Shown here one piece after another: positions 12,187 through 29,149 of a DNA stretch of 64,000 bases. The stretch spans positions 44,206 to 108,205 of IMG/VR virus record IMGVR_UViG_3300044972_000601; one strand, written 5' to 3'. Under the pieces are notes generated by a model that saw only the letters and a program-made list of their open reading frames with translations, had not been told where the DNA came from and ran no database searches. Every line of letters starts with the position of its first letter. Positions within the stretch are counted from its first letter, which is position 1. This DNA is from a virus. A program made the position numbers and the translations under genes.

Positions 12187-12651
12187 TTAAAAGTTTTTGA
12201 TGTCAATTGCATCAATTGCTTCGCGTGTTGTACACGCCAATACTTCAGCTTCTAACGCATTATTTGCATCTCGTATTGCTTGCCTAGCTTGTAACACTTC
12301 AAGTACTCGAGAAGTTGTATTTTCAAGCTGATCTTGTTCTTTGGCTCTTTCTAGTTGCCAGTCCAGGGCCATTATCTTTTCAGCAGCCTTAGCCTTGATC
12401 TGCGGAATTCTGGATTCTTTATATTTTTGCAAAGAATCCGCTTCTTTAGCTGAGTTGTATTCTGTAACTTGTTGATCCAATGTTTTGCCTGGCATTGTGT
12501 GTACAACTACGCCGTCAATCAACTTCAAGGTGGCCAACAATTCTGTTGCTGGATTGTATGGATATGCATAGCTGGTGGTGTGTGCGTCTGACTCAGCATC
12601 GAAAAAATTAGTTGCTTCGTTAGTCAGCGGGTCGAATGTGAGATATTTCAT
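12187..12651 (-). CDS. Tail-fibre assembly chaperone-like protein
   Basis: Helical C-terminus RQAIRDANNALEAEVLACTTREAIDAIDI typical of fibre chaperones; follows fibre-tip pair. Confidence 0.5.
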   Translation of the reverse strand: MKYLTFDPLTNEATNFFDAESDAHTTSYAYPYNPATELLATLKLIDGVVVHTMPGKTLDQQVTEYNSAKEADSLQKYKESRIPQIKAKAAEKIMALDWQLERAKEQDQLENTTSRVLEVLQARQAIRDANNALEAEVLACTTREAIDAIDIKNF

Positions 12652-12663
12652 AATTGTCCTGTT

Positions 12664-14061
12664 TTATAAATCATTGAATGGTTTTGTGTCGTACATTAAC
12701 GGCACAATACACGGATAGTCTGTACTGTTGTAGTTACTGCCAATAATTTCAGTGGCTTGAGTTCGTACCATATTGGCCCTAGCAGAATCAGCAGTGGTGT
12801 TCATCAACCAATCACTGGCAATGTGCTGGAAATACAGGCCTGCTCCGCCGTTTGCATTTGCACCGTTTTGACACATGAAATCGCTTTTGCCAATTGGTGT
12901 AAACTGATAGCCACGACTATTGGGATGTTCAAAATCATAAATTGTTTTGCCATCACTTACTCGGATCAATGCACAGTAAATTCCAGCTTGGTAGTAGTAA
13001 CTTGCACAGTACGCCATGACATATCTGCCGTCTGAACTGACTACAAATCTAATACCATAATTCACACCTTGGTCAATGCCATAGCTGGTGGTATTACTTT
13101 GACTTACAATTGCACCTTCTGCTAAGCCAGTTGTTCCCCATCGGTGTACCCAAAATCCATAACTAGGTATCATGTTAACAAAAACAATTTTTCCATTGTC
13201 GCACATCACAGGAATGCCCCGGTAGTTGTCTTCGGTTCCGTTATTAGTTGGGACTCCAGTACTTGCCGCATACGCAGTACTGTAGTTTGCCGCAGTGTTA
13301 AAATATGTGTACAGATTGCTGGAAGTGGCTTGTGTAAAGGCTGCTAATTGCTCAGTGGTTCCAAAAAATTCTCTATTCGAGTACTGACTTAATCTTGGTA
13401 CATTGTTGTAAACCACAGGTTTGTGAACATAACTACCGTTGCTTTCTATAATGCACAGCTGATTTGTTTTGGCATTGTAGCTGACGCGACCGTATCTAGT
13501 ATTACTATATCCTGCATTTTTAGTAGTAACTGTGACATAGCCTTTGCCTAAACTAAATCTCTGAAAGCCGTACCAAGTTGCACTTCTTGGCCCAACAGAA
13601 ATTTCAGCACTGTTATTAAAAATAGCATACACTTGATCTGATTCGTTGACCACTGTGCCTACATCTCTAAAGGCTTGGCCACGTCGAGTCAATTCAGTAC
13701 TTTCTCTAATAAGATCGCCGGCAAACCCTGAGCCCATGGCATGGCTCAGATTGCCTAAAAATCCTGCACTTGGTGCACCTTGACTGTAACAATCCGATGT
13801 GCCGCCCGGTTGACTACTGGTTAGCGCATATCTACTTCCATAGTATTCTTCACTACTAGGTGCTCCTGTGCTACTCATGGTTGCACCACCACCACCACGA
13901 TTACTATTATTCAACATGAATCTACCTACGCAATTATAGTTATGATCATATATGGAGTAGCCGCCATTTGCACTTTGATTTGACCACACTGCAAACGCTG
14001 CCTGCAAGTATGCATTGCTTGGTGTGTAATTTGTTAAAGTATTGCCTAATAAGGTTGGCAT
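12664..14061 (-). CDS. Asn/Tyr-rich putative fibre-tip/receptor-binding protein, paralog B
   Basis: Colinear similarity to 14085..15491 (e.g. PTNNGTEDNYRGIPVMCDN, SSDGRYV, TPIGKSDF, STDYP). Confidence 0.5.
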   Translation of the reverse strand: MPTLLGNTLTNYTPSNAYLQAAFAVWSNQSANGGYSIYDHNYNCVGRFMLNNSNRGGGGATMSSTGAPSSEEYYGSRYALTSSQPGGTSDCYSQGAPSAGFLGNLSHAMGSGFAGDLIRESTELTRRGQAFRDVGTVVNESDQVYAIFNNSAEISVGPRSATWYGFQRFSLGKGYVTVTTKNAGYSNTRYGRVSYNAKTNQLCIIESNGSYVHKPVVYNNVPRLSQYSNREFFGTTEQLAAFTQATSSNLYTYFNTAANYSTAYAASTGVPTNNGTEDNYRGIPVMCDNGKIVFVNMIPSYGFWVHRWGTTGLAEGAIVSQSNTTSYGIDQGVNYGIRFVVSSDGRYVMAYCASYYYQAGIYCALIRVSDGKTIYDFEHPNSRGYQFTPIGKSDFMCQNGANANGGAGLYFQHIASDWLMNTTADSARANMVRTQATEIIGSNYNSTDYPCIVPLMYDTKPFNDL

Positions 14062-14084
14062 TTTATCGATTCCTTGGATTCATA

Positions 14085-15491
14085 TTATGCATTAATATTG
14101 AACAATGCAGTATCATATTGTACAGATGCAAACGCTGGATAATCAGTTGAGTAAAAATTACTGTGCATAAATCCAGGAAGATAAGTTCTGCATATGTTTG
14201 CCTGGGCAAGATCCGCTGTTTCATTCATTATGGAATCACTCGAAATACTTTGATGGTGTATGCCAGCTCCGCTATCGGCATTGACATTTTCTAACCTCAC
14301 AAAATCACTCTTGCCAATTGGGGTGTAAAAATTCGCATAACTGCCACCATTACTTTCATCCCATACAGTTTTGCCATCGCTGACTCTCACTAGGAATACT
14401 TTAGTGCCCGAACCATAATAATTGTACGGGCAATGTACCAACACATATCTGCCATCTGACGACACTTGATGTCTAATACCATATCTAAATCCCTGATCAG
14501 TTCCGTAACTAGTAGTCAAACTTCTATTAATCAATGCACCGGTATGAGTACCATCTGCATTCCACCTGCTCATCCAAACATTATTACTAGGAATCATCTG
14601 TATCCATACTATTTTATCATTGTCACACATCACAGGTATGCCTCGATAGTTATCTTCAGTGCCGTTGTTTGTGGGCTTACCAGTGGCTGCTACATATGTT
14701 GTGCTGTAATTGGCTGCGGTATTAAAAAAGTTGTACACTGGGCCAGTAGTGCCGGCGGCATATGCGGCAGACTGCTCTGCAACTCCTCTAAACAAAGACG
14801 GTGCATAATATCTAAGATTAGGCACTGCATTATACACAGTAGGTCTAGCACCGTATGAATCGTTGACTTCAATGATGCAGACTTTTTTAGTTTTTACGTT
14901 ATAGCTGATACGCCCTTGAATACTATTTAAATTATAACCAGATTGTTTGGCAGTGACTGTGGTGTAATTCTGAGTATTGACGACTCGCTGATGCACGTAC
15001 CAATTCATACTGCGTTGGCCAATTCTTAAATAACCGCTAGTCGACATGAAAATTGCATAGTCTTGATTGGTTTCATTTACTATAACTCCACAATCTGCAA
15101 GACCACGGGCACGTTGTTCATACCCAGATGACCCCATGATGTCTCCGCAGGCATTTGACCCTTGAGTGAAGCCTATTGACAATAAGCAGTTACCAAGATA
15201 ATTATTAAACTGCGACTGTGCATACGTATCATTGTTACCAGTGGTGGTGCTGGTTCGGGTGAATGCACTGGCAGAATATGAGTCAGTCATTTCGTTTGCT
15301 GAAGTAGAAGTCATTGCACCTCCGCCGTTGACGTTGCTGTCATTCAGCATGAATCTACCAATGCAGTGAAAATTGTGATCATATATGGACCAGCCGCCTT
15401 GACTGCCGTTGTTGCTCCAGCAGGCAAATGCAGGTTGCTTGTACGCTTGACCTGGAACATTCCCACCTACAAAATTAGATAATAACGCCAT
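14085..15491 (-). CDS. Asn/Tyr-rich putative fibre-tip/receptor-binding protein, paralog A
   Basis: Paralog of 12664..14061; directly downstream of fibre-shaft genes. Confidence 0.5.
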   Translation of the reverse strand: MALLSNFVGGNVPGQAYKQPAFACWSNNGSQGGWSIYDHNFHCIGRFMLNDSNVNGGGAMTSTSANEMTDSYSASAFTRTSTTTGNNDTYAQSQFNNYLGNCLLSIGFTQGSNACGDIMGSSGYEQRARGLADCGVIVNETNQDYAIFMSTSGYLRIGQRSMNWYVHQRVVNTQNYTTVTAKQSGYNLNSIQGRISYNVKTKKVCIIEVNDSYGARPTVYNAVPNLRYYAPSLFRGVAEQSAAYAAGTTGPVYNFFNTAANYSTTYVAATGKPTNNGTEDNYRGIPVMCDNDKIVWIQMIPSNNVWMSRWNADGTHTGALINRSLTTSYGTDQGFRYGIRHQVSSDGRYVLVHCPYNYYGSGTKVFLVRVSDGKTVWDESNGGSYANFYTPIGKSDFVRLENVNADSGAGIHHQSISSDSIMNETADLAQANICRTYLPGFMHSNFYSTDYPAFASVQYDTALFNINA

Positions 15492-15500
15492 TTATTTCCC

Positions 15501-16694
15501 TTATACCAATTTCCAACCGTAAGTTACGCCTGAATACACCAGTGCAACGCTTACGTTTTTTATGTTTAAAATTAAATCTTCTGTTAACCCCATAATCAAA
15601 CTGGCGTTTCTTGCAACAGTTAAATTGTTACGGTCAAATGTTCCAGCCAAATCAGCAATGTATATGGTTGCATTAGTTGCAGGTGTTGCTGGCAATGTCA
15701 AGGTAAATGCAGATGTGGCAGTATTGGCAAAATATTTTGCACCTGCCACTGCGGTTGTTGCGGTTGTGATAGTAGACCAAGCGCCGCCGCCTGAAGCATC
15801 CACATAACCTTTTGTTGCAGCTTGTAAATCAGTAGTTGGGTTGCCAGCTAGATACACTGCGGCGCCAAAATAACTGACACCGTTGACTCCTATACCGCCA
15901 GCCACTGTAACTGCTCCAGTTGTTGCACTGCTGGATGCGGTAACATCAGTGGATATTAAAGTTGTAAATTTTCCAGAACTTGCTGTGGCACTGCCAATTG
16001 CAGGAGGACTTGCCAAGTAACTGCTAAAACCAGTGCCACTTATACTGGTGGCAGATAATGAGGTAAATGCTCCTGATAATGCCGTTGTTGCACCAATGGT
16101 GACATTGTTAATTGTGCCGGCAGTTGCTGGATTAATGGTAACTGTGCCAGTACCAAGCGGGCTCAGTGTCACTGTTTGATTGGTAGATACCGCTGATAGC
16201 TGGCCTAAAAACGTAGTAAGCTGTCCAGCTGTTCCGAGTGTTAGTGTACTGGTAGGGCTTATAGTGGCCAATCCTGTTGGACTGATTGTTACATTACCGG
16301 TTGGACTTAAAGTCACTGTGCTGGTTGTGGTCAGTGTAGTAAATCTACCAGCGGCTGCTGTTGTTACACCTATACTTACATTGTTTAATGTGCCAGTCGA
16401 AGTTGGACTTAAACTAAAAGAATTCAACGTTAAATTTAAATTTCCAGAAATGTTAACAGTTCCGTCAACAGTTAGTCCGTCCAATGTTCCTGCAATATGT
16501 GTTACACTTGGTCCTAGTGTGGTAGGAGTCAGTAACTCATCGCCGTTGTAACCTAAATACGATCCAGTAGTAAGTTCAATTTTAGTACCAGTCACAGTGA
16601 TAGTATTTGTGACCAAGTTTCCTTGCACATCTACAACAAAATAAGGGCTAACGTAGCCGTGTGCTGATCTAAATAATTTAGAAACTGTAGTCAT
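15501..16694 (-). CDS. Tail fibre shaft protein
   Basis: Repeated G.INNV.IG.T....G.FT.L motif; P..DLQAATKGYVD; C-terminal FTLTLPATP...IADLAGTF..NNLTV.RN domain common in phage fibres. Confidence 0.7.
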   Translation of the reverse strand: MTTVSKLFRSAHGYVSPYFVVDVQGNLVTNTITVTGTKIELTTGSYLGYNGDELLTPTTLGPSVTHIAGTLDGLTVDGTVNISGNLNLTLNSFSLSPTSTGTLNNVSIGVTTAAAGRFTTLTTTSTVTLSPTGNVTISPTGLATISPTSTLTLGTAGQLTTFLGQLSAVSTNQTVTLSPLGTGTVTINPATAGTINNVTIGATTALSGAFTSLSATSISGTGFSSYLASPPAIGSATASSGKFTTLISTDVTASSSATTGAVTVAGGIGVNGVSYFGAAVYLAGNPTTDLQAATKGYVDASGGGAWSTITTATTAVAGAKYFANTATSAFTLTLPATPATNATIYIADLAGTFDRNNLTVARNASLIMGLTEDLILNIKNVSVALVYSGVTYGWKLV

Positions 16695-16704
16695 ATGTTT
16701 TCCG

Positions 16705-17379
16705 TTAAACCATTGCCATGCCGTATGCGGCTGCTAGGGCGGCTGCATAACCAAATGTAACGGCACTGTTTACACCTGCAGGCTGGCTGGTCATTGTTAA
16801 TGTTGTGAATCTTCCAGTGGATGCTGTGGTGGCACCTATTGAAACATTATTAATATCACCAGTGGTATTTGGGTTTGCAACAAATGTTCCAGTCCCCGAC
16901 GGAGTTATAGATATAATTGCATTTGAGCCGCTAAATGCAACATTGCCTGATGCAGTTAATGCAGTAAATGCACCGGCAGCTGGGGTAATATTGCCAACAG
17001 TGACATTATTCATAGAACCTGTTGTTGCTGGTGCTATTGTTATAGTTCCAGTGCCAGTTGGGCTTAATGTTATTACAGCATTTGAAGAATTAAGATTTAC
17101 AGTGCTAGTTGCAGTTAATGTTGTAAAAGTTCCTGCTTTAGGTGTTATAGCACCAATAATAACGTTATTCATTGCACCAGTTGTCACTGGATTAACTGCT
17201 AAACTGTTGGTCACTGTTAAATCTGCAATTGAGCTACCGGTATTAATAAACAACGTGTTTGTGGTTGCATTTGTTGTGACAGCTATTCCGTTTGTTCCCA
17301 CCACATTTAATACGCTGTTGGATGCGTGAAGATTAATGGCATCTTGCCCACTGACCGCAAGTTGTGTATAACTGTTCAT
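16705..17379 (-). CDS. Short fibre protein with NNV.IG repeats
   Basis: Three copies of TG.MNNV.IG..T...G.FT.LT. Confidence 0.6.
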   Translation of the reverse strand: MNSYTQLAVSGQDAINLHASNSVLNVVGTNGIAVTTNATTNTLFINTGSSIADLTVTNSLAVNPVTTGAMNNVIIGAITPKAGTFTTLTATSTVNLNSSNAVITLSPTGTGTITIAPATTGSMNNVTVGNITPAAGAFTALTASGNVAFSGSNAIISITPSGTGTFVANPNTTGDINNVSIGATTASTGRFTTLTMTSQPAGVNSAVTFGYAAALAAAYGMAMV

Positions 17380-18566
17380 ACTGCTGCTCCTAAAAGAATA
17401 GCCTGTAACTGGCCAAGTGTGATAAGTTGATTGCCCTGAGTGCTTTGATTTAAAACTGTTATAGTAGTAAATCTACCAGCAGCCGGTATTGATGATCCAA
17501 CATTTACATTATCTATAGAACCTATATTACTAGGCCCTATATTAACTGTACCAGTACCGCCAGGGCTTATGTTAACTGTTTGATTATTGCTGTTAAAGAT
17601 TCCGTTATTATTAACAGTGAACGTTGTAAAAGAACCACTATTAGAACTTACTAATCCTATAGTGGTATTATTTATAGTTCCCACGGTTGCTGGATTGACT
17701 GTAACAGTGCCGCTGCCTGTTGGTGCCAACGAAATTAGCTGATTATTACTAACAGCAGACACCGCTCCTATTGCTGTCAGTTCTGTAAATGTTCCAGACT
17801 CTGGCGTAAGTGTTCCTATGTTCACATTATTAAAATTGGATACTTCTACAGTATTTGCTGTGAATGTAGTAGTTACATTTAAATTAGCAATATTTTCTAA
17901 ACTAAACGTTATTGCACTAGGAGCAGTTGTAATTGTAATAGCACCATCTGTATTTAAAATGTTTAGTTTTGTTAGAATAAAATCTGGAGCAAGCTCGGTT
18001 TGGCCAGGAACTTGTATTAACCCAATATTACCAATTGCCACGGATCCAGTTTCGTTAATTATCATGAATCCGTCTGACAGGTTAGTGTTATTCCAATTTC
18101 TGAACACACCTAATTCGCCGCCGGCATTTGAACTTTCACCGTCAATTGTTGGAATATAAGTAGGAGTTAGACGTTCAAAATATGTAACTTTAAAAGTTAA
18201 CTTGACATTTACTAATGGAGTAACACCATCATCTTGATAAAATGGGCTGGCTGTTACAATTACCCTAGATGCATCTGCCACGGCACTGAAACTTACTAAA
18301 TCTCTACCATTATTATTCCTGCCACTTACTGTAATTGATGCTTGTTCAGGGCGAGCTGATATTTTTACATTAATATGCTCAACATCGTTTTTTCCGTACT
18401 CTGCAACAATTTCATAAACCGCACTGGAAAACTCACCAACAAACCACGTGTCTATCACAGTGGCCGTTGGAATAGGTATTTCAGATCCTTTTACAGACCA
18501 GTTTACGCCCCTTTTAAGTCTTAGGGTATTTCTTAAGCCTCTAACAAAGTAGTCTGCAAAGTTCAT
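17376..18566 (-). CDS. Fibre/adaptor protein with NNV.IG repeats
   Basis: Same repeat family in C-terminal half; TAAATA promoter at 18587-18592. Confidence 0.6.
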   Translation of the reverse strand: MNFADYFVRGLRNTLRLKRGVNWSVKGSEIPIPTATVIDTWFVGEFSSAVYEIVAEYGKNDVEHINVKISARPEQASITVSGRNNNGRDLVSFSAVADASRVIVTASPFYQDDGVTPLVNVKLTFKVTYFERLTPTYIPTIDGESSNAGGELGVFRNWNNTNLSDGFMIINETGSVAIGNIGLIQVPGQTELAPDFILTKLNILNTDGAITITTAPSAITFSLENIANLNVTTTFTANTVEVSNFNNVNIGTLTPESGTFTELTAIGAVSAVSNNQLISLAPTGSGTVTVNPATVGTINNTTIGLVSSNSGSFTTFTVNNNGIFNSNNQTVNISPGGTGTVNIGPSNIGSIDNVNVGSSIPAAGRFTTITVLNQSTQGNQLITLGQLQAILLGAAV

Positions 18567-18608
18567 ATAGTCTCACTAGTACAATGTATTTATTCATAGT
18601 CAGATATA

Positions 18609-18637
18609 TTGACTGTGCTCGCTAAAAATGCTAAATT
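18609..18637 (+). promoter_or_regulatory. Sigma70-type promoter
   Basis: TTGACT-17 nt-TAAATT with TG extended -10; AGGAG RBS follows. Confidence 0.5.
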
Positions 18638-18658
18638 AATATAAATTAGGAGTTTGAC

Positions 18659-19240
18659 ATGGGTCGTTATTCGGAATATTTCAAAGAAGTATGGAAGTTG
18701 CAGGCAAACCGCAAGGTTATGGGTGTGGGATTGTTCAATGTATTGGTTGACAACACACGGGTTTTTACACCCGGTGATGCAATTATGCCTGTAGAAGGTG
18801 TTGACAAAGCAATACAGATTCTGTCTCAAAAAGGATACGATTTTATCATTATTACGGGCCAACCTTCTAGCAGAACCCGTGCTTTAGAAATGCACGATTT
18901 TGAAAATATTATCACTGGAGCAAGACAGTTTATCGAACAACTAGGCGGCCGAGTTCGCAATGTTTATTATGCACCGGGTACTGATAAAAATGACCCGTAT
19001 GTTAGACCAAATACGGGTATGTGGGAGCGTGCGGCATCAGAAAATAATCTCAAATGGGATGGGGTGCATTTTGTAGGAAGCGAAACAAACGATGTTAAAG
19101 CATCTACTAAAATGAAAGCTATTCCTGTTTTAATTAAAACTGCTAATAGCGAGTCTAAACTCAAAGCGTTTGAACTAACGCATCAAACTAAAGTAAAAGA
19201 ATTTAGCAGTTTATTAGATTTTGCTAATTCGCTGGAATAA
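18659..19240 (+). CDS. GmhB/HisB-like HAD-fold protein, catalytic motifs degenerate
   Basis: GVDKAI..L...GY..IIITGQ, VYYAP....DPYVRPNTGMWE.A, FVG....DV.A match the GmhB scaffold but DxD is missing. Confidence 0.65.
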   Translation: MGRYSEYFKEVWKLQANRKVMGVGLFNVLVDNTRVFTPGDAIMPVEGVDKAIQILSQKGYDFIIITGQPSSRTRALEMHDFENIITGARQFIEQLGGRVRNVYYAPGTDKNDPYVRPNTGMWERAASENNLKWDGVHFVGSETNDVKASTKMKAIPVLIKTANSESKLKAFELTHQTKVKEFSSLLDFANSLE

Positions 19241-19267: not shown

Positions 19268-19885
19268 TTAAAATACTCTAGAATTTAATATATCATCTGC
19301 ATTTCCAGTGCATCCTTTCCAGAATGTATTAAATGCAATAGTCCTACGTGCTGTATCTAGTTGTGCAGGAAAAACTTGATGTCCAACATTTGACAATATC
19401 AGTAGCAAATGATTTTTAAGATTATCTTCGGAGCCAGCTAAATCTCTAATTGTTGCTTGTATTTGCTTTTTATACAAATAACAAGGAATCTCTTGGGAAC
19501 TAGTATTCATAGCAAAATTTAAATTATCAGGATTATCGTCTAAGTATAATACACCACTGACAACGCTAAATGGGTGTGCGTGGTCTTGATGGCTACCGCC
19601 TTGCGTGGATCTATTAGCCCACGAGTTAGTAATTTCTATTTTTTCAAATAGATTAACATTGTATGCATTTCTTAAATAGTCCTCGCATTCCTTCTCTAAT
19701 GCTTCCTTAATTTCTTTAAATTCAGGTCTATTAAATAAATCTCGATTGATACTTATTTCATTATGTAGATTTTTTGTAAATTCAAGTTTGTCAAACTCTG
19801 ATCTGATGAGATCAAAATCAATCTCATCAGACAAGTCTTTAATTAAAATTAAATTAGTTGACAAATTAAAAAAACTATTCATCAA
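19268..19885 (-). CDS. 2OG-Fe(II) oxygenase (TIGR02466-like)
   Basis: SWAN......H..HAHP.SVVSGVLYL ... HQV ... RRTIAFN. Confidence 0.8.
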   Translation of the reverse strand: MMNSFFNLSTNLILIKDLSDEIDFDLIRSEFDKLEFTKNLHNEISINRDLFNRPEFKEIKEALEKECEDYLRNAYNVNLFEKIEITNSWANRSTQGGSHQDHAHPFSVVSGVLYLDDNPDNLNFAMNTSSQEIPCYLYKKQIQATIRDLAGSEDNLKNHLLLILSNVGHQVFPAQLDTARRTIAFNTFWKGCTGNADDILNSRVF

Positions 19886-21594
19886 ACTTCCTGCAATTCA
19901 TTCTTCGTTAACAATTTTCCAATTTCAGGCAACCATAAGTATTTCATGCTAGAGCGATTCAAAGTGTCTAATGCTTCGCTTATTTTTTCAACTAGCGGAT
20001 CTCCTGCCAAGTTAAAACTAGTATTGAACAAAATAGGTACACCTTTAATTTTATTAAACTCGCTGATCAAGTTATAATAGTGAGGATTCTGCTCTTGTGT
20101 AACTGTTTGCACACGACAAGTACCGTCTACGTGTGTAATTGCTGGAATCTTATCACGTTTGTCTGCTAGTACGTCAACAGCATACATCATACTAGGACTT
20201 TCTTTCCTACCTGCAAGGTCAAACCAGTCTAATGCGTGTTCTGCTAAACATGATCCAGCAAATGGACGGAACCATTCTCTGTTTTTAACTAGATTAACAA
20301 TGTCTTTACCGTCAGGCACAGTTGGGTCAAATAAAATACTTCTGTTACCCAGTGCTCGTGGGCCTGCTTCGCTACGTCCTTGGAACAATGTAACAATATT
20401 ACCGTCTGCAATAAGTTTAGCTACATCACTAGCAGTAGTACCTTCAACGGTAAATCCGTCAAAGTTTGCGGCTGCATATTCTCCGGATCTATCTGGACCA
20501 ATGTACAACGATGTCAATGGTGTTGGCTCGTTGTTACCTGTAATTTTCCTATAAACATACTGGCATGCACCCATAACTGTGCCGCCATCGTGACTAACTG
20601 GTTCGTGATAAAATTCAACATCTGGGAATTCTTTCAAAAATTCGTAGTTTGCAACGCAGTTTAAAACATAACCGCCGGCCATTACAATTTTCTTTTTACC
20701 TGTAATTTCGATAGTCTGTTTGATCAACGCAATTACCCGCTCTTCTGTAGATTTTTGTACAGCATAAGCTAGATCTTTTTGAAGATCGTTAATTGCAGAT
20801 TCATCCTTATGCCACGATGCATCACTTTCGTGCTCTTTTAACTCGGGATTTAAATCGCATCGAATTACATTGCCTGCTGGAAACTTAGGTTTAATCAAGT
20901 TACGATTGTTAAATTTACCTTCATGAATTTTAATACTATCATTTGGTTTACCGTAAGGTGCAATGCCCATAGTTTTGCCAGCTTCAATAGCATGGAATCC
21001 TAAGTATTGTGTTACAGCTTCGTAACTCTTTGTAATACCATGGCCGTCAGACATTTCAATATATGTATCGTTGTCGGTTAGGCTGAAACTATCTACTAAA
21101 TTAGTGCCGTAATGCACTAGATGTTTGGTAATTTCTGCTGGGTATGACAAACTCCAGATAGATTCTACTTCCCACGATTCATGTTTTAAACCTTCCATAT
21201 CAGGCAAGTCTAAACCGCTGCCGGCGCCGTCGATAACAATAGCTGCGGCATCGTCGAATCCTGAATTATAAAATGCACAAACTGCATGAGTCATGTGATG
21301 ATCATCACCTAACTTAATAGTTTCCATCTTATGCCCAGGTTGTTTCTTTCTTACATAACAGGTATATGCATCTTCGGCTGTCCAAGGAACTTGTCCAAAC
21401 GCATTTCTAGTCCCGCATAAAATTAAGAAATCAATATGATCAGTATATTTGAATGCTTCTTCCATGCCTAAGAAAGGATTGCCATCGTACTTCATTCTGC
21501 TTAATCGATCTTCTTCGATATAGTATACTAGTTTGTTATCTTCGTACAGCGCACAAGCACCGTTGTGCCCTACATTAATAGCCATTAACCACAT
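19882..21594 (-). CDS. Carbamoyltransferase (NodU/CmcH/TobZ family)
   Basis: EEDRLSRMK, HHMTHA, IDGAG, GKTMG, GG..LNC..N, GPRALGNRSIL, RE.FRPFA, FNTSFNLAG motifs. Confidence 0.93.
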   Translation of the reverse strand: MWLMAINVGHNGACALYEDNKLVYYIEEDRLSRMKYDGNPFLGMEEAFKYTDHIDFLILCGTRNAFGQVPWTAEDAYTCYVRKKQPGHKMETIKLGDDHHMTHAVCAFYNSGFDDAAAIVIDGAGSGLDLPDMEGLKHESWEVESIWSLSYPAEITKHLVHYGTNLVDSFSLTDNDTYIEMSDGHGITKSYEAVTQYLGFHAIEAGKTMGIAPYGKPNDSIKIHEGKFNNRNLIKPKFPAGNVIRCDLNPELKEHESDASWHKDESAINDLQKDLAYAVQKSTEERVIALIKQTIEITGKKKIVMAGGYVLNCVANYEFLKEFPDVEFYHEPVSHDGGTVMGACQYVYRKITGNNEPTPLTSLYIGPDRSGEYAAANFDGFTVEGTTASDVAKLIADGNIVTLFQGRSEAGPRALGNRSILFDPTVPDGKDIVNLVKNREWFRPFAGSCLAEHALDWFDLAGRKESPSMMYAVDVLADKRDKIPAITHVDGTCRVQTVTQEQNPHYYNLISEFNKIKGVPILFNTSFNLAGDPLVEKISEALDTLNRSSMKYLWLPEIGKLLTKNELQEV

Positions 21595-21606: not shown

Positions 21607-22530
21607 TTATTTTGTTGTTTTCTTAATATGTTCTTTGATGCCTGCAATGATAGTTTTTAATTCTTCTTTGCTAAAATCCATCAATGTATCGTTTAATCTA
21701 TCCGCTTCTTCGCTTGCAAATCCAGCAATCCTGATAGGACTATAAACTTTCTTTGCACCTTTCTTTTCAACAATATTGAAATGCTCTGGGAATGAAACAT
21801 TAATGCCAAAAGTGCTTCCTAAGATTACAGTGCCAGGTTTATCAAAAGTATATGCAAGATGCTGTCCTACACTATCGCAACCAATAAAATAGTCGGAGCT
21901 TTCAATGATTGCAGCCCATACCCGCAATGGAACTTGTTCTTGAGGTTGGAACAAAGGCAAGTTTACTACGTCTAGTTTATGTTCACCCATGTAAATCATG
22001 TTATAGTCTTTAGATAGTTCTGCTACAAGTTCCATAAACGTTGCTTGTTCAATACTACGACTGCTTCCGTCATATACAATACCTGGACCCATTTGACTGC
22101 TACGGCCAAACGGCTGAATCACAATTGTTTTTTCTTTCTGATGCTGTTGTTTTACTTGAGTCATTAATCCAACAGCTGCCATTTCTTCGTGTTTGTTTAA
22201 GTTTAGGGTGGGCTTTTGATTTTTATCAGTACGCTCGCCTAAAATATCCCACCAAAAGCTCTGCTGTAAGCTACTTCTCTGGTTGTAGTATTCATGATCT
22301 CTATAAGGTTCTGCACTAACACAGATATTGTCCTTAATAAGATCTTCAAATAACCCCTTGTGGTTAACGTCCCAGGCTTTGGCCTGTAATGTCGGATGTC
22401 CCATGAACATCTCTAGTCCGCCTTCGCAAACAATTCCTGCAAGTTCACCTCTGCTATCTAATTCTTCTAGAGCGGGTATACTTGCTATAACACGGCCTGC
22501 GCCACCATTAATAAAGACAACTTTTTTCAT
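21607..22530 (-). CDS. GT-B glycosyltransferase, GT9/heptosyltransferase-like
   Basis: N-terminal GGAG.V, IVIQPFG, FIGCDSVGQHLA...KPGTVILGST signature. Confidence 0.7.
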   Translation of the reverse strand: MKKVVFINGGAGRVIASIPALEELDSRGELAGIVCEGGLEMFMGHPTLQAKAWDVNHKGLFEDLIKDNICVSAEPYRDHEYYNQRSSLQQSFWWDILGERTDKNQKPTLNLNKHEEMAAVGLMTQVKQQHQKEKTIVIQPFGRSSQMGPGIVYDGSSRSIEQATFMELVAELSKDYNMIYMGEHKLDVVNLPLFQPQEQVPLRVWAAIIESSDYFIGCDSVGQHLAYTFDKPGTVILGSTFGINVSFPEHFNIVEKKGAKKVYSPIRIAGFASEEADRLNDTLMDFSKEELKTIIAGIKEHIKKTTK

Positions 22531-22549: not shown

Positions 22550-22557
22550 TATTTATA
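22550..22557 (-). promoter_or_regulatory. Late promoter TATAAATA driving glycosyltransferase-carbamoyltransferase-oxygenase unit
   Basis: tatttata on + strand, 20 nt upstream of ATG 22530. Confidence 0.7.
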
Positions 22558-22570: not shown

Positions 22571-23338
22571 CTATACAAGGTTTTCTGATATATAGTCAAG
22601 CAAAATTTTGCCGTATTCTTCGTGAACTATTGCATCAAAGTGGCCGGCCATTCGGCGACGGTCAATATGATTAACACTTCCCCAATTGTAAACTGCTTCT
22701 GAATTCAATTTGTAAAAATTTACACAGCTTGTATCGATAATTTTATAGTCAACTTTATCAACTGTGTTTACGAATATATGCTTGTAACCTTTTGATTTTA
22801 AAAATTCATGTAACGCAATTATTCTAGCTTCCTGTTGGGGACGTTGCAGTTCGTCTGTCCACAAATAATCTACACAAAATGGTACAACATCTTCAACTAC
22901 ACTATGAAGTTTACCCTTGGTCTGGACAACGGTTCCACAAGTTGGGTTGACAAACATTGTACCAAAATCTTTAAATTCTATAGGTGCATGTTCGCTTAAA
23001 AAAATATTGTTAAGATTAAGATTAAAATTTGGTATTTTGCTAAACCAAGCAGTACCATCAACTTCTGTTCTATGCAAACTAGACCAACCAATTATAACAA
23101 ATACATCTTCAGGGTTAGTGCCAGTTTTTTCTAACTCAAGTAGATCAAAGATAGTATTTCTAAAAATAAAATCGTTGGTTGCACCGTTATAAGAATTGTT
23201 TATATAAGTTTCGCAATTTAATCCGGATGCAATAACTTTTGGAAATGCATATTCTTTATTATGTTCTTCTCGGTTGTAATCTTCTATAATCTCCATTCCA
23301 AAGATAAATGAATCGCCGTTTGCATATAGTGTTTTCAT
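22571..23338 (-). CDS. SGNH/GDSL-like hydrolase or acyltransferase
   Basis: LYANGDSFIFG block I, N.SYNGATND block II, IIGWS, C-terminal GHF. Confidence 0.6.
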   Translation of the reverse strand: MKTLYANGDSFIFGMEIIEDYNREEHNKEYAFPKVIASGLNCETYINNSYNGATNDFIFRNTIFDLLELEKTGTNPEDVFVIIGWSSLHRTEVDGTAWFSKIPNFNLNLNNIFLSEHAPIEFKDFGTMFVNPTCGTVVQTKGKLHSVVEDVVPFCVDYLWTDELQRPQQEARIIALHEFLKSKGYKHIFVNTVDKVDYKIIDTSCVNFYKLNSEAVYNWGSVNHIDRRRMAGHFDAIVHEEYGKILLDYISENLV

Positions 23339-23341
23339 GAA

Positions 23342-23459: not shown

Positions 23460-23536
23460 TATCTGTTATTGAAAGTATATCCTAGACTATATATATGCAA
23501 ACAAAAACTGTTTCGTGCCTAAACTGGAGATTTATC

Positions 23537-24175
23537 ATGTTGAAAAAAATTGTTAATGCATTTAGCGTACCTATATTAGAAACTCAATTTGATAATGTTG
23601 ATGCGTTGAACGTTTCTCTTTATGAAAATATAACTGCTATGTTTTCTGATATGGACGACAAGCGACTTTTGAGTTATGAATGGAACAACTTTGTACTAAC
23701 AGATAATCCAAAACCAGCAACAGGATATAGTTCGTTTAATCATGCAAGTCTAGTAGATAATCCTAATTTTAAAGAGTTCTTTGATATAATTACTCCGTTA
23801 ATCACTGATTTTTTCAAACAACTAAATTTTCCCGAAGCTTCCCCGTTTATCAATAAGTGGAGTTTTGAAAATTCATGGGCAAGTGTATATCCGGAAGGTG
23901 CATGGGTTCCTAGTCATAATCACGGTAGCAGTCACTGGAGTGGTGTCTACTATGTAAAAGCAGATCCTGCATGTGGTGATTTAATATTCTCGGATCCTAA
24001 AGAATATTCGTTAAGCAACGAACCTGCAAACACTAAATGGCGTGGCAATAATCGCCATATAATGGGAGCAATTCCGGGCAAGATGTATGTTTTTCCTGGG
24101 TATGTCAAACATGAATCACATCCTAATATGTCCGGCGAAGATCGAGTTATTATCAGTTTCAATATTAAAGCATGA
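23537..24175 (+). CDS. 2OG-Fe(II) oxygenase (TIGR02466-like)
   Basis: SWAS......W.PSHNH..SHWSGVYYV, FPGYVKHES, RVIISFN; start moved to ATG 23537 after GGAG RBS. Confidence 0.85.
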   Translation: MLKKIVNAFSVPILETQFDNVDALNVSLYENITAMFSDMDDKRLLSYEWNNFVLTDNPKPATGYSSFNHASLVDNPNFKEFFDIITPLITDFFKQLNFPEASPFINKWSFENSWASVYPEGAWVPSHNHGSSHWSGVYYVKADPACGDLIFSDPKEYSLSNEPANTKWRGNNRHIMGAIPGKMYVFPGYVKHESHPNMSGEDRVIISFNIKA

Positions 24176-24750
24176 TATACGATCCTAATTTTCCAGAAAT
24201 ACTACAAACAACATTTGCAATAACTGCTGAGACTAGGCAACGGATGATCGATACTGTCTTGTCACAAAAAGATATTGGAAATTATTACGGTGGCTACACG
24301 TTTCGAGTTGTAGATACAGAACAAGGCGATTTTAAAAAACTGTATAACTATACTATCGAATGCACTGAAAAAATATTTGGAAAGTTAATGCTTGCTCCTA
24401 AGAACAGATCTTGGTGTTGGGCAAATGTTTATAACAAAGATAGTTTTAGAACAAACATGCACGAACATAAAGGAACGTGTTCTATCAACGCAATTTATTA
24501 TCTAAAAATACCCGATGACATTGCTAATAATGAAGGCGGATTGTCACTGGTAAAAGATGAAAAACTGTACGGTACATTTCAGCCGGACGAAGGCGATCTT
24601 GTCATAATGCCAAGCTATGTTCCGCACGAGCCGCAGTATCACTCGTCGACTGATTATAGAATAGCAATTAATATGGAGATTGCAACATCTAATCACAGTT
24701 CAAAATACTACACTAAGGAAAACATTTATGCCAACGCCACCATTCTATAA
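24172..24750 (+). CDS. 2OG-Fe(II) oxygenase
   Basis: WANV.......MHEH...INAIYYL, MPSYVPHEP, RIAIN. Confidence 0.8.
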   Translation: MIYDPNFPEILQTTFAITAETRQRMIDTVLSQKDIGNYYGGYTFRVVDTEQGDFKKLYNYTIECTEKIFGKLMLAPKNRSWCWANVYNKDSFRTNMHEHKGTCSINAIYYLKIPDDIANNEGGLSLVKDEKLYGTFQPDEGDLVIMPSYVPHEPQYHSSTDYRIAINMEIATSNHSSKYYTKENIYANATIL

Positions 24751-25270
24751 CCCATCTGTGTACGAACAAATTCGAGTATTATCTAAGCACTTGTTAGAAG
24801 AAGATGTATGTGATAAACTGATTAAAAACTACGATACTGATTTAGAATTAAAAAATCAAGATGGCGACAATAATGTATCTTATAGATCTGTTAAAATAAA
24901 AGATATTGATATTAACGAAATCCCGGGATTACGGGATCAAGTATTATCTGCTAATTTTGAATATTATAGACTCAACGTCAATGCACTTAAATCTGATTGT
25001 TTTTTTGCAAAATATGAAACGGGTATGCATTACCAAGAACTGCATATGGATTGTGTGCCTGGTGATCATCAGCGTAAAATAACTTTTACATTAATGCTGA
25101 ACGACGATTTTGAAGGCGGCCAATTTGAATTGTTAGGCAATACCTATATAGAAAAGGAAAGGGGAAAACTTTTGGTTCTCCCCTCTTTTCTTCCCCATCG
25201 AATCACACAAGTTACATCAGGTGTAAGATATGCAATCTTTGGGTGGTTTTACGGCCCTAACTTTATTTAA
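24728..25270 (+). CDS. 2OG-Fe(II) oxygenase, prolyl-4-hydroxylase-like
   Basis: LHMD...RKITFTLMLNDDFEGG..L, PSFLPHRITQVTSGVRY..FGW; start at ATG 24728 after AAGGA. Confidence 0.85.
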   Translation: MPTPPFYNPSVYEQIRVLSKHLLEEDVCDKLIKNYDTDLELKNQDGDNNVSYRSVKIKDIDINEIPGLRDQVLSANFEYYRLNVNALKSDCFFAKYETGMHYQELHMDCVPGDHQRKITFTLMLNDDFEGGQFELLGNTYIEKERGKLLVLPSFLPHRITQVTSGVRYAIFGWFYGPNFI

Positions 25271-25791
25271 ACTGTAGGAATTTCTACAGGTACTAAAGAT
25301 AGTGGTTTTGCCTGAATCTCCACTGGATCTTTATGCTCGCTAGTTACAGTTCCGCCTGGACCAGTTACTGTTAGAACTACACTAATTACGACTTTTGTTG
25401 CTTGTTTTACAAATTCAATTTCGACAAACTCTTCTTGGCCGTATTCTTCTCCGTTGATAACCCAACTGTAAGTATCCCAAATACCGTTAGGAGTTGCATG
25501 GAATCCCAGTTTGACAGTGTTGCCGTTGTCTTTAACAACGTAGTTAGACCAGTCAGCGAACGGCGGCCCTGGCGGCGGTGTTGGGTTTTCAGCAATGTGC
25601 TCTTCTAACCACTGTCCGCCACTGATCCATTCGTCGTTCTTAAATTTCCAACCTACATTAACATGGTCAGGAACTTGTTCCCAATACCCAGGCAGATCGT
25701 TTTTTGCGATCTGATCTGGATGCCACAGTCCCGAAGGATCTTCGTCATGCGTTTGCATGATTTCATTGTTTACTATTTTTGCCCAAATCAT
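25267..25791 (-). CDS. Fibre-associated chaperone-like protein with PKD-like C-terminus
   Basis: WAKIVN N-terminus, VPDHVNVGWKF, YSW.....V.LTVTGPGG; follows Cys-rich pair. Confidence 0.45.
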   Translation of the reverse strand: MIWAKIVNNEIMQTHDEDPSGLWHPDQIAKNDLPGYWEQVPDHVNVGWKFKNDEWISGGQWLEEHIAENPTPPPGPPFADWSNYVVKDNGNTVKLGFHATPNGIWDTYSWVINGEEYGQEEFVEIEFVKQATKVVISVVLTVTGPGGTVTSEHKDPVEIQAKPLSLVPVEIPTV

Positions 25792-25808
25792 TTATTTCTC
25801 CTGAATTA

Positions 25809-27449
25809 TTAAGCATCTTTCCAATAGATAATAGCCATACCAGTACCAGCATTGCTAATTCTCCAATCTAACTCACATGCAGGGTATGCTAAAGCAGTAA
25901 CTCCGTCGCCGTTGCAAGTGTTAAACGTACTATTACCATAACAAACGCATAAGATATAGTTTCTAAATACGCCGCCACCACCGCCTTTACCTGCTTTTGA
26001 CATCATGGTACAGATTCCTACTCCGCCTGATCCGCCCAATGTTCCTGCACAACTAATAATGTTAGGAAACAACGATTGTGCAAATCTATCTGAGCAACAT
26101 ACCTTACCTGTCAATCCTAGGCAACATACGAATGGCCAATTTACATATAGTGAATTATTATTGTAATGGAACTGTGTAGCACAGCAAACAAATACTACGC
26201 CGCCTGTTCCTGCGCCTTCACCTGCATTTGCTGGACGAGTTGTTTGATCTTCTCGTGTTGCCCACAGAATTGACCCGCACCAGTAGTCATTATCCCTGTG
26301 ATGGCTTCTACCAGCAGAGCCGGATCCGCACATACTGTGAATGTCGTGCCAGCTGTGAACTATTGGATCTTTACTCGGTGGTGTGTACATAGTACACGAC
26401 GCATAATTACCGCAATAGAAGCCGATACAATCCCAATCAATACATCCGCCAACACCTGAGTGGTTATCATAGCCACCCCAACCGCCGTGGCCTTCGATCC
26501 AGAATCCGCAGGTACAATTGGTATTGTACATATTTTGGCATTCACAACAAGTGCAAATTTGCCATTTTGTTCCGCCGCCGCCGCCCGCGCTGTTTGGAAA
26601 ACAGGCATTACGCTGATGCGGCCCGCCTTGCCCGCCTTGGTTTGCTGAGCCGCACATACAACTGCAAGGGCCGCTACGTACATCTTGTCTAAAGGTATAA
26701 CCTACGCCGCCGCCGCCGCCGGCAGTTGCTCCGTGGCCGCCTGATGCGCCGTATATATCAACTGAATTTTGTGCGCCTTGTCCGTTGCCGCCACATAAAT
26801 GTCCCCACCATCCAGCACTTGCACCGCCGGGATAACGTGCATTACAACATTGATCAGAACCGTGGCCTGGAGTTTGGCCAATGCCAACGCCGGCAACAAC
26901 AATACAATACCCGCAGCAAGTTGTTAAAGAAAAACAAATACATGTTCCGCAATAATGGCTGAGAGAACCACCGCAATAGTTACAACCTTTGCCGCCTGTG
27001 CCGCCAATACTATTCCAATCTCCACCAGATGCTGCGCCTGGTGTACAACCGGCTGCTCCGCCGCCGGTTACTGTTCTTGCTACAGCACTTGAGTTAGTGT
27101 AACTTATTGTTGTATCTTGTTCTTGGCGACCAACAACAACCGAAACAACACAGCCTGGGGACACAGTGTCGTAGCGTTCAGCATATCCGCCGCCGCCGCC
27201 TGCATACCCGCAACAAGTTTCTGTACATTTTGGTTTGCCGCCGCCGCCTACTGAAACTACTCGTAAACAAGTAATTCCGGAAGGAACAGTAAATGAATAG
27301 TTACCAGGAGTGTCTAAAATAACTCTATTTTGCCAACAATCGTTGGAACTATAAGAATATTTTTGAGTATTTGACTGATAACAAGTAGTAGATACTGCAA
27401 GCTGACAACTGTTAGCTTGAGAAGTACCAGTGCTTACATAACGTCCCAT
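25809..27449 (-). CDS. Cys/Gly-rich putative fibre-tip protein, paralog B
   Basis: About 48 Cys in 546 aa (hand count); FTVPSG...RVVSVGGGG start and AG.GMAIIYW end typical of phage glycine-rich domains. Confidence 0.6.
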   Translation of the reverse strand: MGRYVSTGTSQANSCQLAVSTTCYQSNTQKYSYSSNDCWQNRVILDTPGNYSFTVPSGITCLRVVSVGGGGKPKCTETCCGYAGGGGGYAERYDTVSPGCVVSVVVGRQEQDTTISYTNSSAVARTVTGGGAAGCTPGAASGGDWNSIGGTGGKGCNYCGGSLSHYCGTCICFSLTTCCGYCIVVAGVGIGQTPGHGSDQCCNARYPGGASAGWWGHLCGGNGQGAQNSVDIYGASGGHGATAGGGGGVGYTFRQDVRSGPCSCMCGSANQGGQGGPHQRNACFPNSAGGGGGTKWQICTCCECQNMYNTNCTCGFWIEGHGGWGGYDNHSGVGGCIDWDCIGFYCGNYASCTMYTPPSKDPIVHSWHDIHSMCGSGSAGRSHHRDNDYWCGSILWATREDQTTRPANAGEGAGTGGVVFVCCATQFHYNNNSLYVNWPFVCCLGLTGKVCCSDRFAQSLFPNIISCAGTLGGSGGVGICTMMSKAGKGGGGGVFRNYILCVCYGNSTFNTCNGDGVTALAYPACELDWRISNAGTGMAIIYWKDA

Positions 27450-27451
27450 TA

Positions 27452-29149
27452 TTATGCTTCCCTATAATATATAATTGCCATTCCTGTACCTGCATTACTG
27501 ACCATTTGATCTAGTAAGCAAGGAGGAAATGCTAGTGGTGTAGCTGCTGTACCGTTACAGCAATCAAATGCACCGCCCCAACATACACAAAGGAATTGAC
27601 ATTTTGCTTGGCCGCCGCCACCGCCTTTGCCGGCTTTGGATGAATATCCGCACCACGACACACCGCCAGAACCGCCTAATGTTCCTGCGCAAGTAATAAA
27701 GAATGGAAATAATGCATCCTGCATTAACCATGCCTGATCACACCAGCCGCAAACGCCTAACTGGCAAATTTTACACCAGTTAACGTTTGGACTTCCGCTT
27801 GTTCCGCTGTTTGCTCCAGCTGTTGTACCAATCATGTTACCCATCATTAAAGGATTACAGCAAGTAGTAGCAATGCCGCCAGTTCCTGCACCTTCACCTG
27901 AGTTTCGTGGACGAACTCCGATGAAAAATCCTCTGCAACCGTTAGTGTTTGCTCTACTTGCAACTGTGCCTGGTGCACCAGATCCGGCCATATCGTGTAT
28001 ATCCCACCATTCTTGTCTTTGAGGGCCTTCTTCGCTACAAGCGTAGCAATGCGTAGTATAGCAGTAAGCAGAACCAAAAGGATACGAACAATATGCTCCA
28101 TAACCCCACTCAACGTGCCATGCTTGTGATTCTTTAGGGTTTGCGCCACCACGGCCTCCGTCACCACCTTTCCATACACCAGACATGCAGTCTTGACTCG
28201 CCCAACTTCTGCATTGTGTTTGTCCTAAACTTGTGCCACCGCCGCCCTGGGCGCTCGGTGGGCAATTTGTACACCAAGTCAAATAAGGAGGAATATACTG
28301 ACACCCCTGCATACAAATACAGTTACAGCAGTTATAATGCCAAGTACAGCCTTGTGCGATCCAGTCGCCAATACCTGCTCCACCACCAACAACTGCTCCG
28401 TGACTTGTGCCGCCGTAGCCGCAAGTACACCAAGATGCGCCGCCACAAGTTGCTAACCAAGAACCTGCGCTTGCACCGCCAACAATATTTGCACTACAGC
28501 AACCGTTACCGTCATGTCCACCTTCAGTATATTGGTAAACTACACAGTATCCACAACAAGTTGTAACACTAAAACATTTACAACTTCCGCAATAGTGACT
28601 GTAAGAACTTCCGCAATTGTTACAAGAATATCCTGACAAGCCGCCGCAACTATTCCAATCTCCACCTGTAGCAACGCCAGAAACACAGCCAGATGCTCCG
28701 CCTGCTGTGTGAGAAGCAACACCATTACAACTTACTGTTGTATCTTGCTCTTGACGGCCTACTTGGATACAGAAATATGTGGAGCCGCCTGTTACTGCGT
28801 GATTTTTCTCGCTGTATGCTCCGCCTGAGCCAGCAGCACTTGCGCACGTTGAACCGCTTGCATCAGGCACACTGCCGCATTTTGGTTTGCCGCCGCCGCC
28901 AACAAGAACTGTTCTGGCACAAACTATGCCAGCTGGCACTGTCCAGCAATATGCTCCGGGTTTATCTAAAACTAACTTGTACTGCCAACATTGCTTGCCG
29001 TCGTAACATGCTTTTCCGCCGTAACGTAAGGTTGTGCCATATGCTTGACTTTGTGCAATGCTACCACCCAAACTTGCGGCTGTCATTTTAAATGCAGCTT
29101 GCTTTTCAGAAGTAATACAAGTAGTTAATACTGGTACAAAACGTCCCAT
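27452..29149 (-). CDS. Cys/Gly-rich putative fibre-tip protein, paralog A
   Basis: About 53 Cys in 565 aa (hand count); shares GGGGKPKC, GRQEQDTT, SHYCG.C.CFS.TTCCGYC, CAGTLGGSGGV with paralog B. Confidence 0.6.
   Translation of the reverse strand: MGRFVPVLTTCITSEKQAAFKMTAASLGGSIAQSQAYGTTLRYGGKACYDGKQCWQYKLVLDKPGAYCWTVPAGIVCARTVLVGGGGKPKCGSVPDASGSTCASAAGSGGAYSEKNHAVTGGSTYFCIQVGRQEQDTTVSCNGVASHTAGGASGCVSGVATGGDWNSCGGLSGYSCNNCGSSYSHYCGSCKCFSVTTCCGYCVVYQYTEGGHDGNGCCSANIVGGASAGSWLATCGGASWCTCGYGGTSHGAVVGGGAGIGDWIAQGCTWHYNCCNCICMQGCQYIPPYLTWCTNCPPSAQGGGGTSLGQTQCRSWASQDCMSGVWKGGDGGRGGANPKESQAWHVEWGYGAYCSYPFGSAYCYTTHCYACSEEGPQRQEWWDIHDMAGSGAPGTVASRANTNGCRGFFIGVRPRNSGEGAGTGGIATTCCNPLMMGNMIGTTAGANSGTSGSPNVNWCKICQLGVCGWCDQAWLMQDALFPFFITCAGTLGGSGGVSWCGYSSKAGKGGGGGQAKCQFLCVCWGGAFDCCNGTAATPLAFPPCLLDQMVSNAGTGMAIIYYREA

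Follow-up and report, generated by a model that had tools for sequence, protein, structure and literature searches.

A glycosyltransferase-carbamoyltransferase pair conserved beside cysteine-rich fibre-tip genes of ocean cyanomyoviruses: a candidate system for tail-fibre glycosylation

Why should a marine phage keep sugar-modifying enzymes in the midst of its tail-fibre genes? The question is raised by an enzyme island found in a stretch of viral DNA of 64,000 nucleotides (positions 44,206 to 108,205 of the IMG/VR record IMGVR_UViG_3300044972_000601), hereafter called the window, to which all coordinates refer unless a locus is named. The source contig is a 108-kb IMG/VR fragment of an uncultured ocean T4-like cyanomyovirus with a CheckV completeness of about 30%, and over the carbamoyltransferase (CT) gene its DNA is no more than about 70% identical to that of the nearest isolates. 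An initial annotation of the window had described eight enzymes flanked by two fibre-tip modules and had interpreted them as a line for the decoration of fibre proteins. Its gene content and layout were confirmed for all the components that it named. The decoration proposal stands in a narrower form, restricted to a core composed of a glycosyltransferase (GT), the CT and cysteine-rich tip proteins; the two equal modules and the single unit do not. Folds and families, gene order, co-occurrence and promoter motifs were computed. Fibre glycosylation is the best explanation that we can offer for the GT-CT-tip block, and we give it roughly an even chance of being correct.

The conserved core, present in at least nine cyanomyovirus lineages, consists of a long fibre, one to three tip proteins with 8-13% Cys and a glycine-rich domain, a chaperone-like gene, a late-promoter motif, the GT and the CT. 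This order was observed in the lineage of the window (seven IMG/VR loci, in which the genes f106, cys565, cys546 and c174 are followed by the GT and the CT), in the locus L137, in S-CAM1, S-CAM3, S-SSM7, Sf-FS3 and P-SSM2, and in AG-345-P14 and AG-345-O18. In L137, whose GT is 49% identical, three Cys-rich open reading frames (ORFs) and a non-Cys ORF precede the GT and the CT. In the isolates, the interval between the long fibre and the GT is occupied by unannotated genes with 8-12% Cys and 14-18% Gly, present in two or three paralogous copies, after which comes a non-Cys gene. The GT always adjoins the CT (S-CAM1, S-CAM3, S-SSM7/S-SSM6a, P-SSM2/P-SSM5, Sf-FS3 and four single-cell-derived contigs). 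Across the core lineages the identity of the GT falls to 38-49% and the tips diverge beyond BLAST detection. The GT (78-80%) and the CT (73-79%) are the best-conserved island genes in relatives of the window, the corresponding figure for the tips being 47-60%.

All ORFs of 200 aa or more were scanned in whole genomes for contents of ≥8% Cys and ≥10% Gly. ORFs of this composition are located solely beside the GT in S-CAM1, in P-SSM2 and in the contig of the window, and none was found in the complete genomes of Syn9, S-PM2, P-SSM4, S-RSM4, S-SM1, S-BM3, S-CAM8, S-SM2 and S-SSM5. No GT homolog was detected in these nine genomes, nor in P-RSM4, which was checked for the GT only. Cys/Gly-rich tips are present in 9/9 GT-CT lineages vs 0/9 GT-less genomes, in counts that ignore phylogeny; this is the co-occurrence of GT, CT and Cys-rich proteins that the initial annotation had suggested looking for. 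Of the fibre, S-BM3 retains just an N-terminal stub, and it is devoid of both tips and enzymes; S-CAM8 possesses a CT without GT, beside ordinary low-Cys fibre genes. The core association that joins Cys-rich tips to the GT and the CT is a robust one and is unreported in the literature consulted, the corresponding gene cassette itself being known from isolates.

The tip genes of the window are cys565 (paralog A, 27452..29149, minus strand; 9.4% Cys and 18.6% Gly) and cys546 (paralog B, 25809..27449, minus strand; 8.8% Cys and about 19% Gly). The two proteins are 41% identical and both are kept, at 47-60% identity, in seven related loci. The window proteins contain about 50 cysteines, of which 18 are shared without exception by eight homologs, a pattern suggestive of structural disulfides or metal sites. 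The AlphaFold model of cys565 (pLDDT 80.5) produced weak matches in the PDB, the best of them being the fibre protein gp24 of phage Pam3 (7ypx, E 3e-3, 149 columns) and the glycine-rich domains of ALK/LTK. In Pam3, this domain of gp24 forms the receptor-binding tip, and the next gene encodes its chaperone, gp25 (PMC9608196). This pair (PDB 7ypx, 7yfw) and the S16 adhesin gp38 resemble the locus by the succession of a glycine-rich receptor-binding tip and a chaperone gene; the window tips differ, besides the weakness of the match, in being twice as long, in their about 50 cysteines and in their tandem paralogy.

The glycine-rich domain was also examined by profile methods. Pfam reported no direct match of cys565 or cys546 to PF21722 (Gly_rich_2), a domain that is carried by some cys565 homologs (P0327, P0331, P0332, P0361) and matched by two of the Cys-rich paralogs of isolates. 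Using hhalign, the window pair was aligned with the Cys-rich paralogs of isolates at the start of the glycine-rich domain (90% probability, E 1e-6, 64 columns). No match was obtained upon tblastn of cys565 against isolated phages. An absence of cys565-type tips from isolates was rejected, the negative being a failure of sensitivity, as composition, Pfam and hhalign reveal equivalent Cys-rich tips; when a tip of S-CAM1 was used as the tblastn query, matches were restricted to S-CAM1 and S-CAM3. The gene trailing the pair, c174 (25267..25791, minus strand), is kept at 50-62% identity in relatives and is called chaperone-like by position only. The phage tail assembly chaperone family PF16778 was not matched, even at E up to 1, by c174 or by c154, the small gene of the second module, and neither matched a chaperone family; the gene at the c174 position does carry PF16778 in S-SSM7, Sf-FS3 and AG-345-O18 (1e-9 to 5e-11).

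The GT of the window, gt307 (21607..22530, minus strand), is a GT9-fold, heptosyltransferase-like protein of 307 aa with an N-terminal GGxGR loop. Its AlphaFold model (pLDDT 97) starts directly with a Rossmann strand, and the protein lacks the C-terminal extension of 60-100 residues of the isolates' GT. The top Foldseek matches are all GT9 enzymes, namely TibC (3e-9), 3tov (a Veillonella GT9), WaaF and WaaC, over a range of 3e-9 to 2e-6, with a small margin between TibC (3e-9) and the lipopolysaccharide (LPS) enzymes (2e-8 to 4e-8). At the sequence level, gt307 itself has no Pfam match, PF01075 included, reaches 17 bits against TIGR02201 (cut-off 170) and remains under the cut-off with whole-protein GT9 models. 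PF01075 is matched by 49/74 members of the gt307 family, with E values up to 0.1 and 1e-8 at best. The donor motif D219-S-x-G-Q-H224, of which D219 and H224 are invariant in the 74 sequences, aligns to the D-(S/T)-G-x-x-H motif of WaaF/WaaC. One family member, P0223 (558 aa), displays a GT8 domain (PF01501) fused to a GT9-like domain, a hint that some relatives may assemble glycans with two or more sugars. Distant GGxGR homologs were found between tail genes of N4-like Vibrio phages and in Aeromonas phage HJ05, without CT. The proteins encoded beside them contain 4.1-4.4% Cys, several times the usual proportion: an annotated tail protein in a Vibrio phage (L004:6745-9522) and an unannotated protein with 4.1% Cys in HJ05 (L005:4309-5988).

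The interpretation in terms of the fibre is backed by the nature of the best fold match, because TibC heptosylates serines of a beta-helical adhesin (PMC4358343). The autotransporter heptosyltransferases TibC/AAH (PDB 4rap, 4rb4; PMC4358343) have in common with gt307 a GT-B fold of GT9 type, and their substrate is a repetitive, beta-structured adhesin encoded next door. The identity is only about 12%, however, and gt307 has an Arg at the position of TibC Asp110/WaaC Asp13. [quoted passage not shown]

The CT gene, ct570 (19882..21594, minus strand), starts 12 nt after gt307 and encodes a NodU/CmcH/TobZ-type O-carbamoyltransferase. Both of its domains are clearly recognized: PF16861 (Carbam_trans_C, YrdC-like) with 203 bits (cut-off 27, E 3e-60) and PF02543 (Carbam_trans_N, Kae1-like) with 74 bits (cut-off 24, E 1.5e-20), and phrog_1601 is matched at 9e-156. 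The NodU equivalog model yields 143 bits for a cut-off of 1000 and ct570 is therefore not NodU itself; it is best described as a putative sugar O-carbamoyltransferase. Such an activity on heptose is known from WapO, a NodU-family enzyme that O-carbamoylates an LPS heptose (HepII) (PMC8005017). The set formed by WaaC/WaaF and the HepII 7-O-carbamoyltransferase WapO (PDB 2gt1, 1psw; PMC8005017) resembles the window pair in that a GT9 enzyme goes together with a NodU-family CT and the donor motif is kept. It differs in that the pair studied here is encoded by a phage, behind a late-promoter motif and among fibre genes, and does not conserve the catalytic Asp.

The mechanism that we propose can be summarized as follows. 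The core would be a late-expressed block devoted to fibre-tip maturation, in which the Cys-rich proteins with their glycine-rich domain would form the receptor-binding tips of the long fibre and would be assisted in their folding by the product of the next gene. The GT9-fold enzyme would move a heptose-type sugar from a nucleotide sugar to a virion protein, the acceptor being most likely the Cys-rich tips or the Ser/Thr-rich fibre shafts, and the CT would then O-carbamoylate the transferred sugar. The product would be a carbamoyl-heptose as on HepII of the Pseudomonas LPS core, borne in this case by a phage protein. What we infer in this scheme comprises the donor sugar, the protein acceptor, the sequence of the two steps and any effect on binding or stability. 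A virion-protein target is favoured because the adjacency is conserved, a late motif is present, TibC is the best fold match, the GT and the CT are better conserved than the tips, and GGxGR homologs are independently located near tail genes and Cys-elevated proteins. Phage-encoded glycosyltransferases that decorate virion proteins have a precedent in mycobacteriophages (cited in PMC11256854); other GT families, capsid and tail-tube targets and Gram-positive-type hosts are concerned there, with no carbamoylation. A more specific version of our proposal would place carbamoyl-heptose on the tips throughout a widespread group of ocean cyanomyoviruses, by means of a GT9 offshoot in which Arg replaces the catalytic Asp, possibly acting on another nucleophile such as the abundant cysteines (S-glycosylation). 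This version is considered decidedly improbable; if true, it would represent the first phage tail-fibre glycosylation in a Gram-negative-type host, together with new GT9 chemistry.

The block has a counterpart in the cyanomyovirus 'LPS gene' cassette T4-GC 302-308 (P-SSM2 PSSM2_307-313, S-SSM7 SSSM7_120-131, S-CAM1, S-CAM3; Sullivan et al. 2010, PMC3037559), where orthologous GT (38-48%) and CT (43-51%) genes occur in the same order and at the same site, flanked by the long fibre and a virion structural protein, after Cys-rich paralogs. Sullivan et al. left the cassette unexplained and even considered that it might be stuffer DNA (PMC3037559). After the GT-CT pair, the isolates encode a nucleotidyltransferase, a PfkB kinase, a small HAD, a cupin and an epimerase. 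The window differs in that these genes, the active small HAD included, are not on its contig, where only a HAD relic is found, and the published work on the cassette makes no link to Cys-rich genes or to virion modification. The linkage with a heptose-type pathway in isolates is suggestive only as to a heptosyl transfer from ADP-heptose by gt307. Within the cassette of isolates, genes of about 110 aa labeled 'phosphoheptose isomerase' (S-CAM1 L001:12910-13233, P-SSM2 L003:13030-13374, S-CAM3 L021:12924-13244, Sf-FS3 L022:15315-15641) begin with the HAD motif I (V/I-D-I-D-G-T-I-C) and align with HAD phosphatases; the annotation therefore looks wrong, and the adjoining cupin may be the isomerase.

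A number of points weigh against a glycosylation of the fibre. LPS is the classical substrate of GT9 enzymes. In at least 90% of the sequences an Arg (R13 in gt307) stands where WaaC has its catalytic Asp13, in a region of weak alignment; the chemistry of gt307 may therefore differ, or the protein may be no transferase at all. In TibC, the proposed base Asp110 is the equivalent of WaaC Asp13 by structural superposition (PMC4358343). The co-occurrence may reflect the inheritance of one physical block instead of a tie between enzyme and substrate. Heptose pathway genes are not on the 108-kb contig, which covers about 30% of the genome; the only HAD relic there is of an inactive type (motif I lost). 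Finally, the cassette goes by the name of 'LPS genes' in the literature (PMC3037559).

This last designation leads to a different target, the envelope of the host. The GT and the CT would then add carbamoyl-heptose to the host LPS or surface glycan and mask the receptor of the neighbouring tips, protecting the progeny from adsorbing to debris or infected cells. A GT9 enzyme with a heptose pathway is classic LPS-core machinery, and it is as 'LPS genes' that the cassette was published (PMC3037559, PMC7378029); WapO carbamoylates an LPS heptose (PMC8005017), the fusion of one family member to a GT8 domain is what would be expected of LPS-core enzymes, and an enzyme that modifies the receptor would likewise be expected to vary together with the proteins that bind it. 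A late-type promoter and a place in the fibre operon nevertheless fit poorly with envelope remodelling, which would require the synthesis and export of lipid-linked sugars immediately before lysis, and the Arg at the catalytic-base position is unlike LPS heptosyltransferases. The LPS of marine Synechococcus is reported to be devoid of heptose, which weakens this explanation. It is on the whole considered unlikely.

The timing of expression bears on the choice between these targets. A T4-type late-promoter motif, TATAAATA, is located at 22550-22557 on the minus strand, 20 nt upstream of the GT start. Counted by itself, this octamer is present at chance level in the window (6 vs 5.6 expected). 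The shorter ATAAATA is rarer than expected (14 vs 21 sites, window 2892-60235), and 11/14 sites are intergenic, intergenic DNA representing 4.7% of the window. Most of the intergenic sites precede a correctly oriented start codon by 5-90 nt, including those of both giant fibres, of the fibre-shaft gene s396 and of the GT; the distance is 27 nt for the 2750-aa fibre and 21 nt for s396. Several sites (5208, 52765) are just 4-5 nt before an ATG and leave no space for a Shine-Dalgarno sequence. An (A/C)TAAATA box 20-50 nt before the GT start is conserved in 10/12 lineages, and in S-CAM1 and S-CAM3 a strong terminator hairpin immediately precedes the late motif of the GT. The consensus late promoter that the initial annotation had placed ahead of the GT-carbamoyltransferase-oxygenase unit is borne out by this motif, and the three genes are tightly packed (12 nt between GT and CT, then an overlap of 4 nt with ox205). 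Late expression of the GT and the CT is thus predicted from motifs. The eight enzymes do not form one unit, as had been claimed: four of them (ox226, ox192, ox196 and had193) are on the opposite strand with sigma70-like boxes upstream and without late motif, and the gene set varies in close relatives.

The remaining enzymes of the island comprise four 2-oxoglutarate (2OG)-Fe(II) oxygenases, three of which belong to PF13759 and one to PF13640 according to Pfam. The genes ox226, ox192 and ox196 (23495..25270, plus strand; PF13759, PF13640) vary in presence among relatives, and ox205 (19268..19885, minus strand; PF13759 at 2.6e-11), whose start overlaps the CT stop, is kept only in L014, the other relatives having a different PF13640-like gene there. 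The contig contains five PF13759/PF13640 genes in total; as four of these are inside the island, the clustering of oxygenases is real. An order of events in which hydroxylation precedes glycosylation, as had been suggested, is unsupported. The SGNH-like protein duf255 (DUF6071; 22571..23338, minus strand), matching PF19547 at E 1e-8 with an N-terminal NGDSF (GDS motif), is found in L007 only among related loci. The GmhB-like HAD had193 (18659..19240, plus strand) appears to be a pseudo-phosphatase: its motif I DxDGT reads LFNVL, and the K and D residues of motifs III and IV are replaced. The loss of motif I is kept in seven lineages, the small HAD genes of isolates retaining DIDGT. The earlier description as a degenerate GmhB is apt with respect to the lost catalytic aspartates, and GmhB (NF006506) is the best NCBIfam match but far under the cut-off (65 bits, cut-off 178).

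This variability is the foundation of another explanation, in which the fibre region is a hyperplastic accessory island, that is, a tolerated insertion site whose unrelated enzymes act on small molecules or metabolites and have no common target. The genes around the GT-CT pair indeed differ between close relatives and include GATase-like, TctC-like, GDSL-like and methyltransferase-like genes as well as other oxygenases; strands and promoter types are mixed, and 2OG oxygenases are scattered over 14/16 cyanomyovirus genomes (PMC3037559). The adjacency of GT, CT and tips in nine lineages, at 38-80% identity, and the rank of the GT and the CT as the most conserved genes there would be left unexplained, and we hold this explanation to be quite unlikely as an account of the whole block. 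The oxygenases, the DUF6071 protein and the pseudo-HAD are nevertheless classified as variable accessories, outside the conserved core. Pfam searches on the extra genes in the islands of relatives gave only weak or unrelated matches, and an assignment of two of them as sulfotransferases was discarded as unsupported by Pfam. An odd cargo for a fibre region was observed in close relatives, where genes for a class-I glutamine amidotransferase-like protein and a TctC-family periplasmic binding protein lie between the CT and the HAD gene (L007:15591-17059).

DNA hypermodification, in which the oxygenases, the GT and the CT would build glycosylated or carbamoylated bases, had been disfavoured by the initial annotation. 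The DNA glucosyltransferases of T4 are GT-B enzymes. In addition, a NodU-family enzyme yields 5-carbamoyloxymethylcytosine in phage DNA (PMC8670742). Five complete GT-CT genomes were devoid of PF00303 (hydroxymethylase/thymidylate synthase), PF00145 (C5-methylase) and PF12851 (TET/JBP, above cut-off), so that the hydroxymethyl-pyrimidine routes have no enzymes there. Where carbamoyltransferases modify DNA, they are accompanied by PF00303 on modified contigs only (PMC8670742), and the genes of the island are situated among late structural genes, not replication genes. The earlier judgement is upheld and a role in DNA modification appears highly improbable.

The second fibre-tip module was examined as a possible partner of the enzymes. 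It consists of the Asn/Tyr-rich paralogs n468 (14085-15491) and n465 (12664-14061) and of the small gene c154 (12187-12651), all on the minus strand (12187..15491), and is sporadic in its distribution. The paralogs share 49% identity and contain 9-10% Asn and 7-8% Tyr, and tblastn of n468 against isolated phages returned no match. The cassette is absent from the nine closest loci (L006-L014), the shafts of L014 running straight into the structural protein, and is present in the close relative L138. In L137 (L137:10001-13313) it is 82-87% identical, though the GT and the CT of that locus are only 49% identical; the cassette has therefore been exchanged horizontally. These values point to a recent exchange of a complete fibre-tip cassette between phage lineages, and Asn/Tyr-rich paralog pairs share contigs in metagenomes. 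The Asn/Tyr-rich cassette would accordingly be a separate, exchangeable tip module, and its supposed partnership with the enzymes is contradicted by its absence from the closest loci and its exchange independently of the GT and the CT. As for the claim that both modules have the same layout, the paralog pair and the trailing small gene are common to both, but the chaperone-like identity is one of position only and the trailing genes are dissimilar. No similarity was detected between c174 and c154, both small and non-Cys; their homology to each other or to known chaperones was abandoned as unsupported by comparison and profile searches.

In the window, the block is arranged as follows. The minus strand encodes the 1224-aa fibre, the 2750-aa fibre, f106, cys565, cys546 and c174; then come the three oxygenases (plus strand), duf255, gt307, ct570 and ox205 (minus strand) and had193 (plus strand), and finally s396, s224, s397, n468, n465, c154 and a 1168-aa virion structural protein (minus strand). 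The giant tail fibre of 2750 aa (29501..37753, minus strand) belongs to the T4-GC296 family, heads the block with its own late-promoter motif at 37780 and matches 'tail fiber protein' genes of S-CAM1, P-SSM2 and S-SSM7 by tblastn. A small conserved fibre-associated protein and possible adaptor, f106 (29165..29485, minus strand), matches phrog_11338 and phrog_693 (tail fiber) and has homologs at the same position in S-CAM1, S-CAM3, P-SSM2, AG-345-P14 and the IMG/VR relatives. The fibre-shaft proteins s396, s224 and s397 (15501..18566, minus strand; late motif at 18587) have repeats common to all three, and the C-terminus of s397 matches tail PHROGs. A 90-aa ORF (18590-18862, minus strand), which overlaps the beginning of had193 from the opposite strand, is unlikely to be a gene; the matches that it has in relatives are due to this overlap. 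Close homologs of the GT, of a Cys-rich tip and of n468 were encountered on metagenomic contigs of 281-355 kb; the lineage of the window may exceed the usual cyanomyovirus size.

Prochlorococcus and Synechococcus are killed on a large scale by T4-like cyanophages, whose host range is determined by fibre tips that are poorly understood. Since 2005-2010, the 'LPS genes' that large cyanophages carry have been without assigned function. The tie of the GT and the CT to fast-evolving Cys-rich tips provides a concrete hypothesis, testable in P-SSM2, S-SSM7 and S-CAM1, according to which the phage decorates its own adhesins. If true, an extra layer would be added to the determination of host range in the ocean and to virion stability, and protein heptosylation would extend from bacterial adhesins to viruses.

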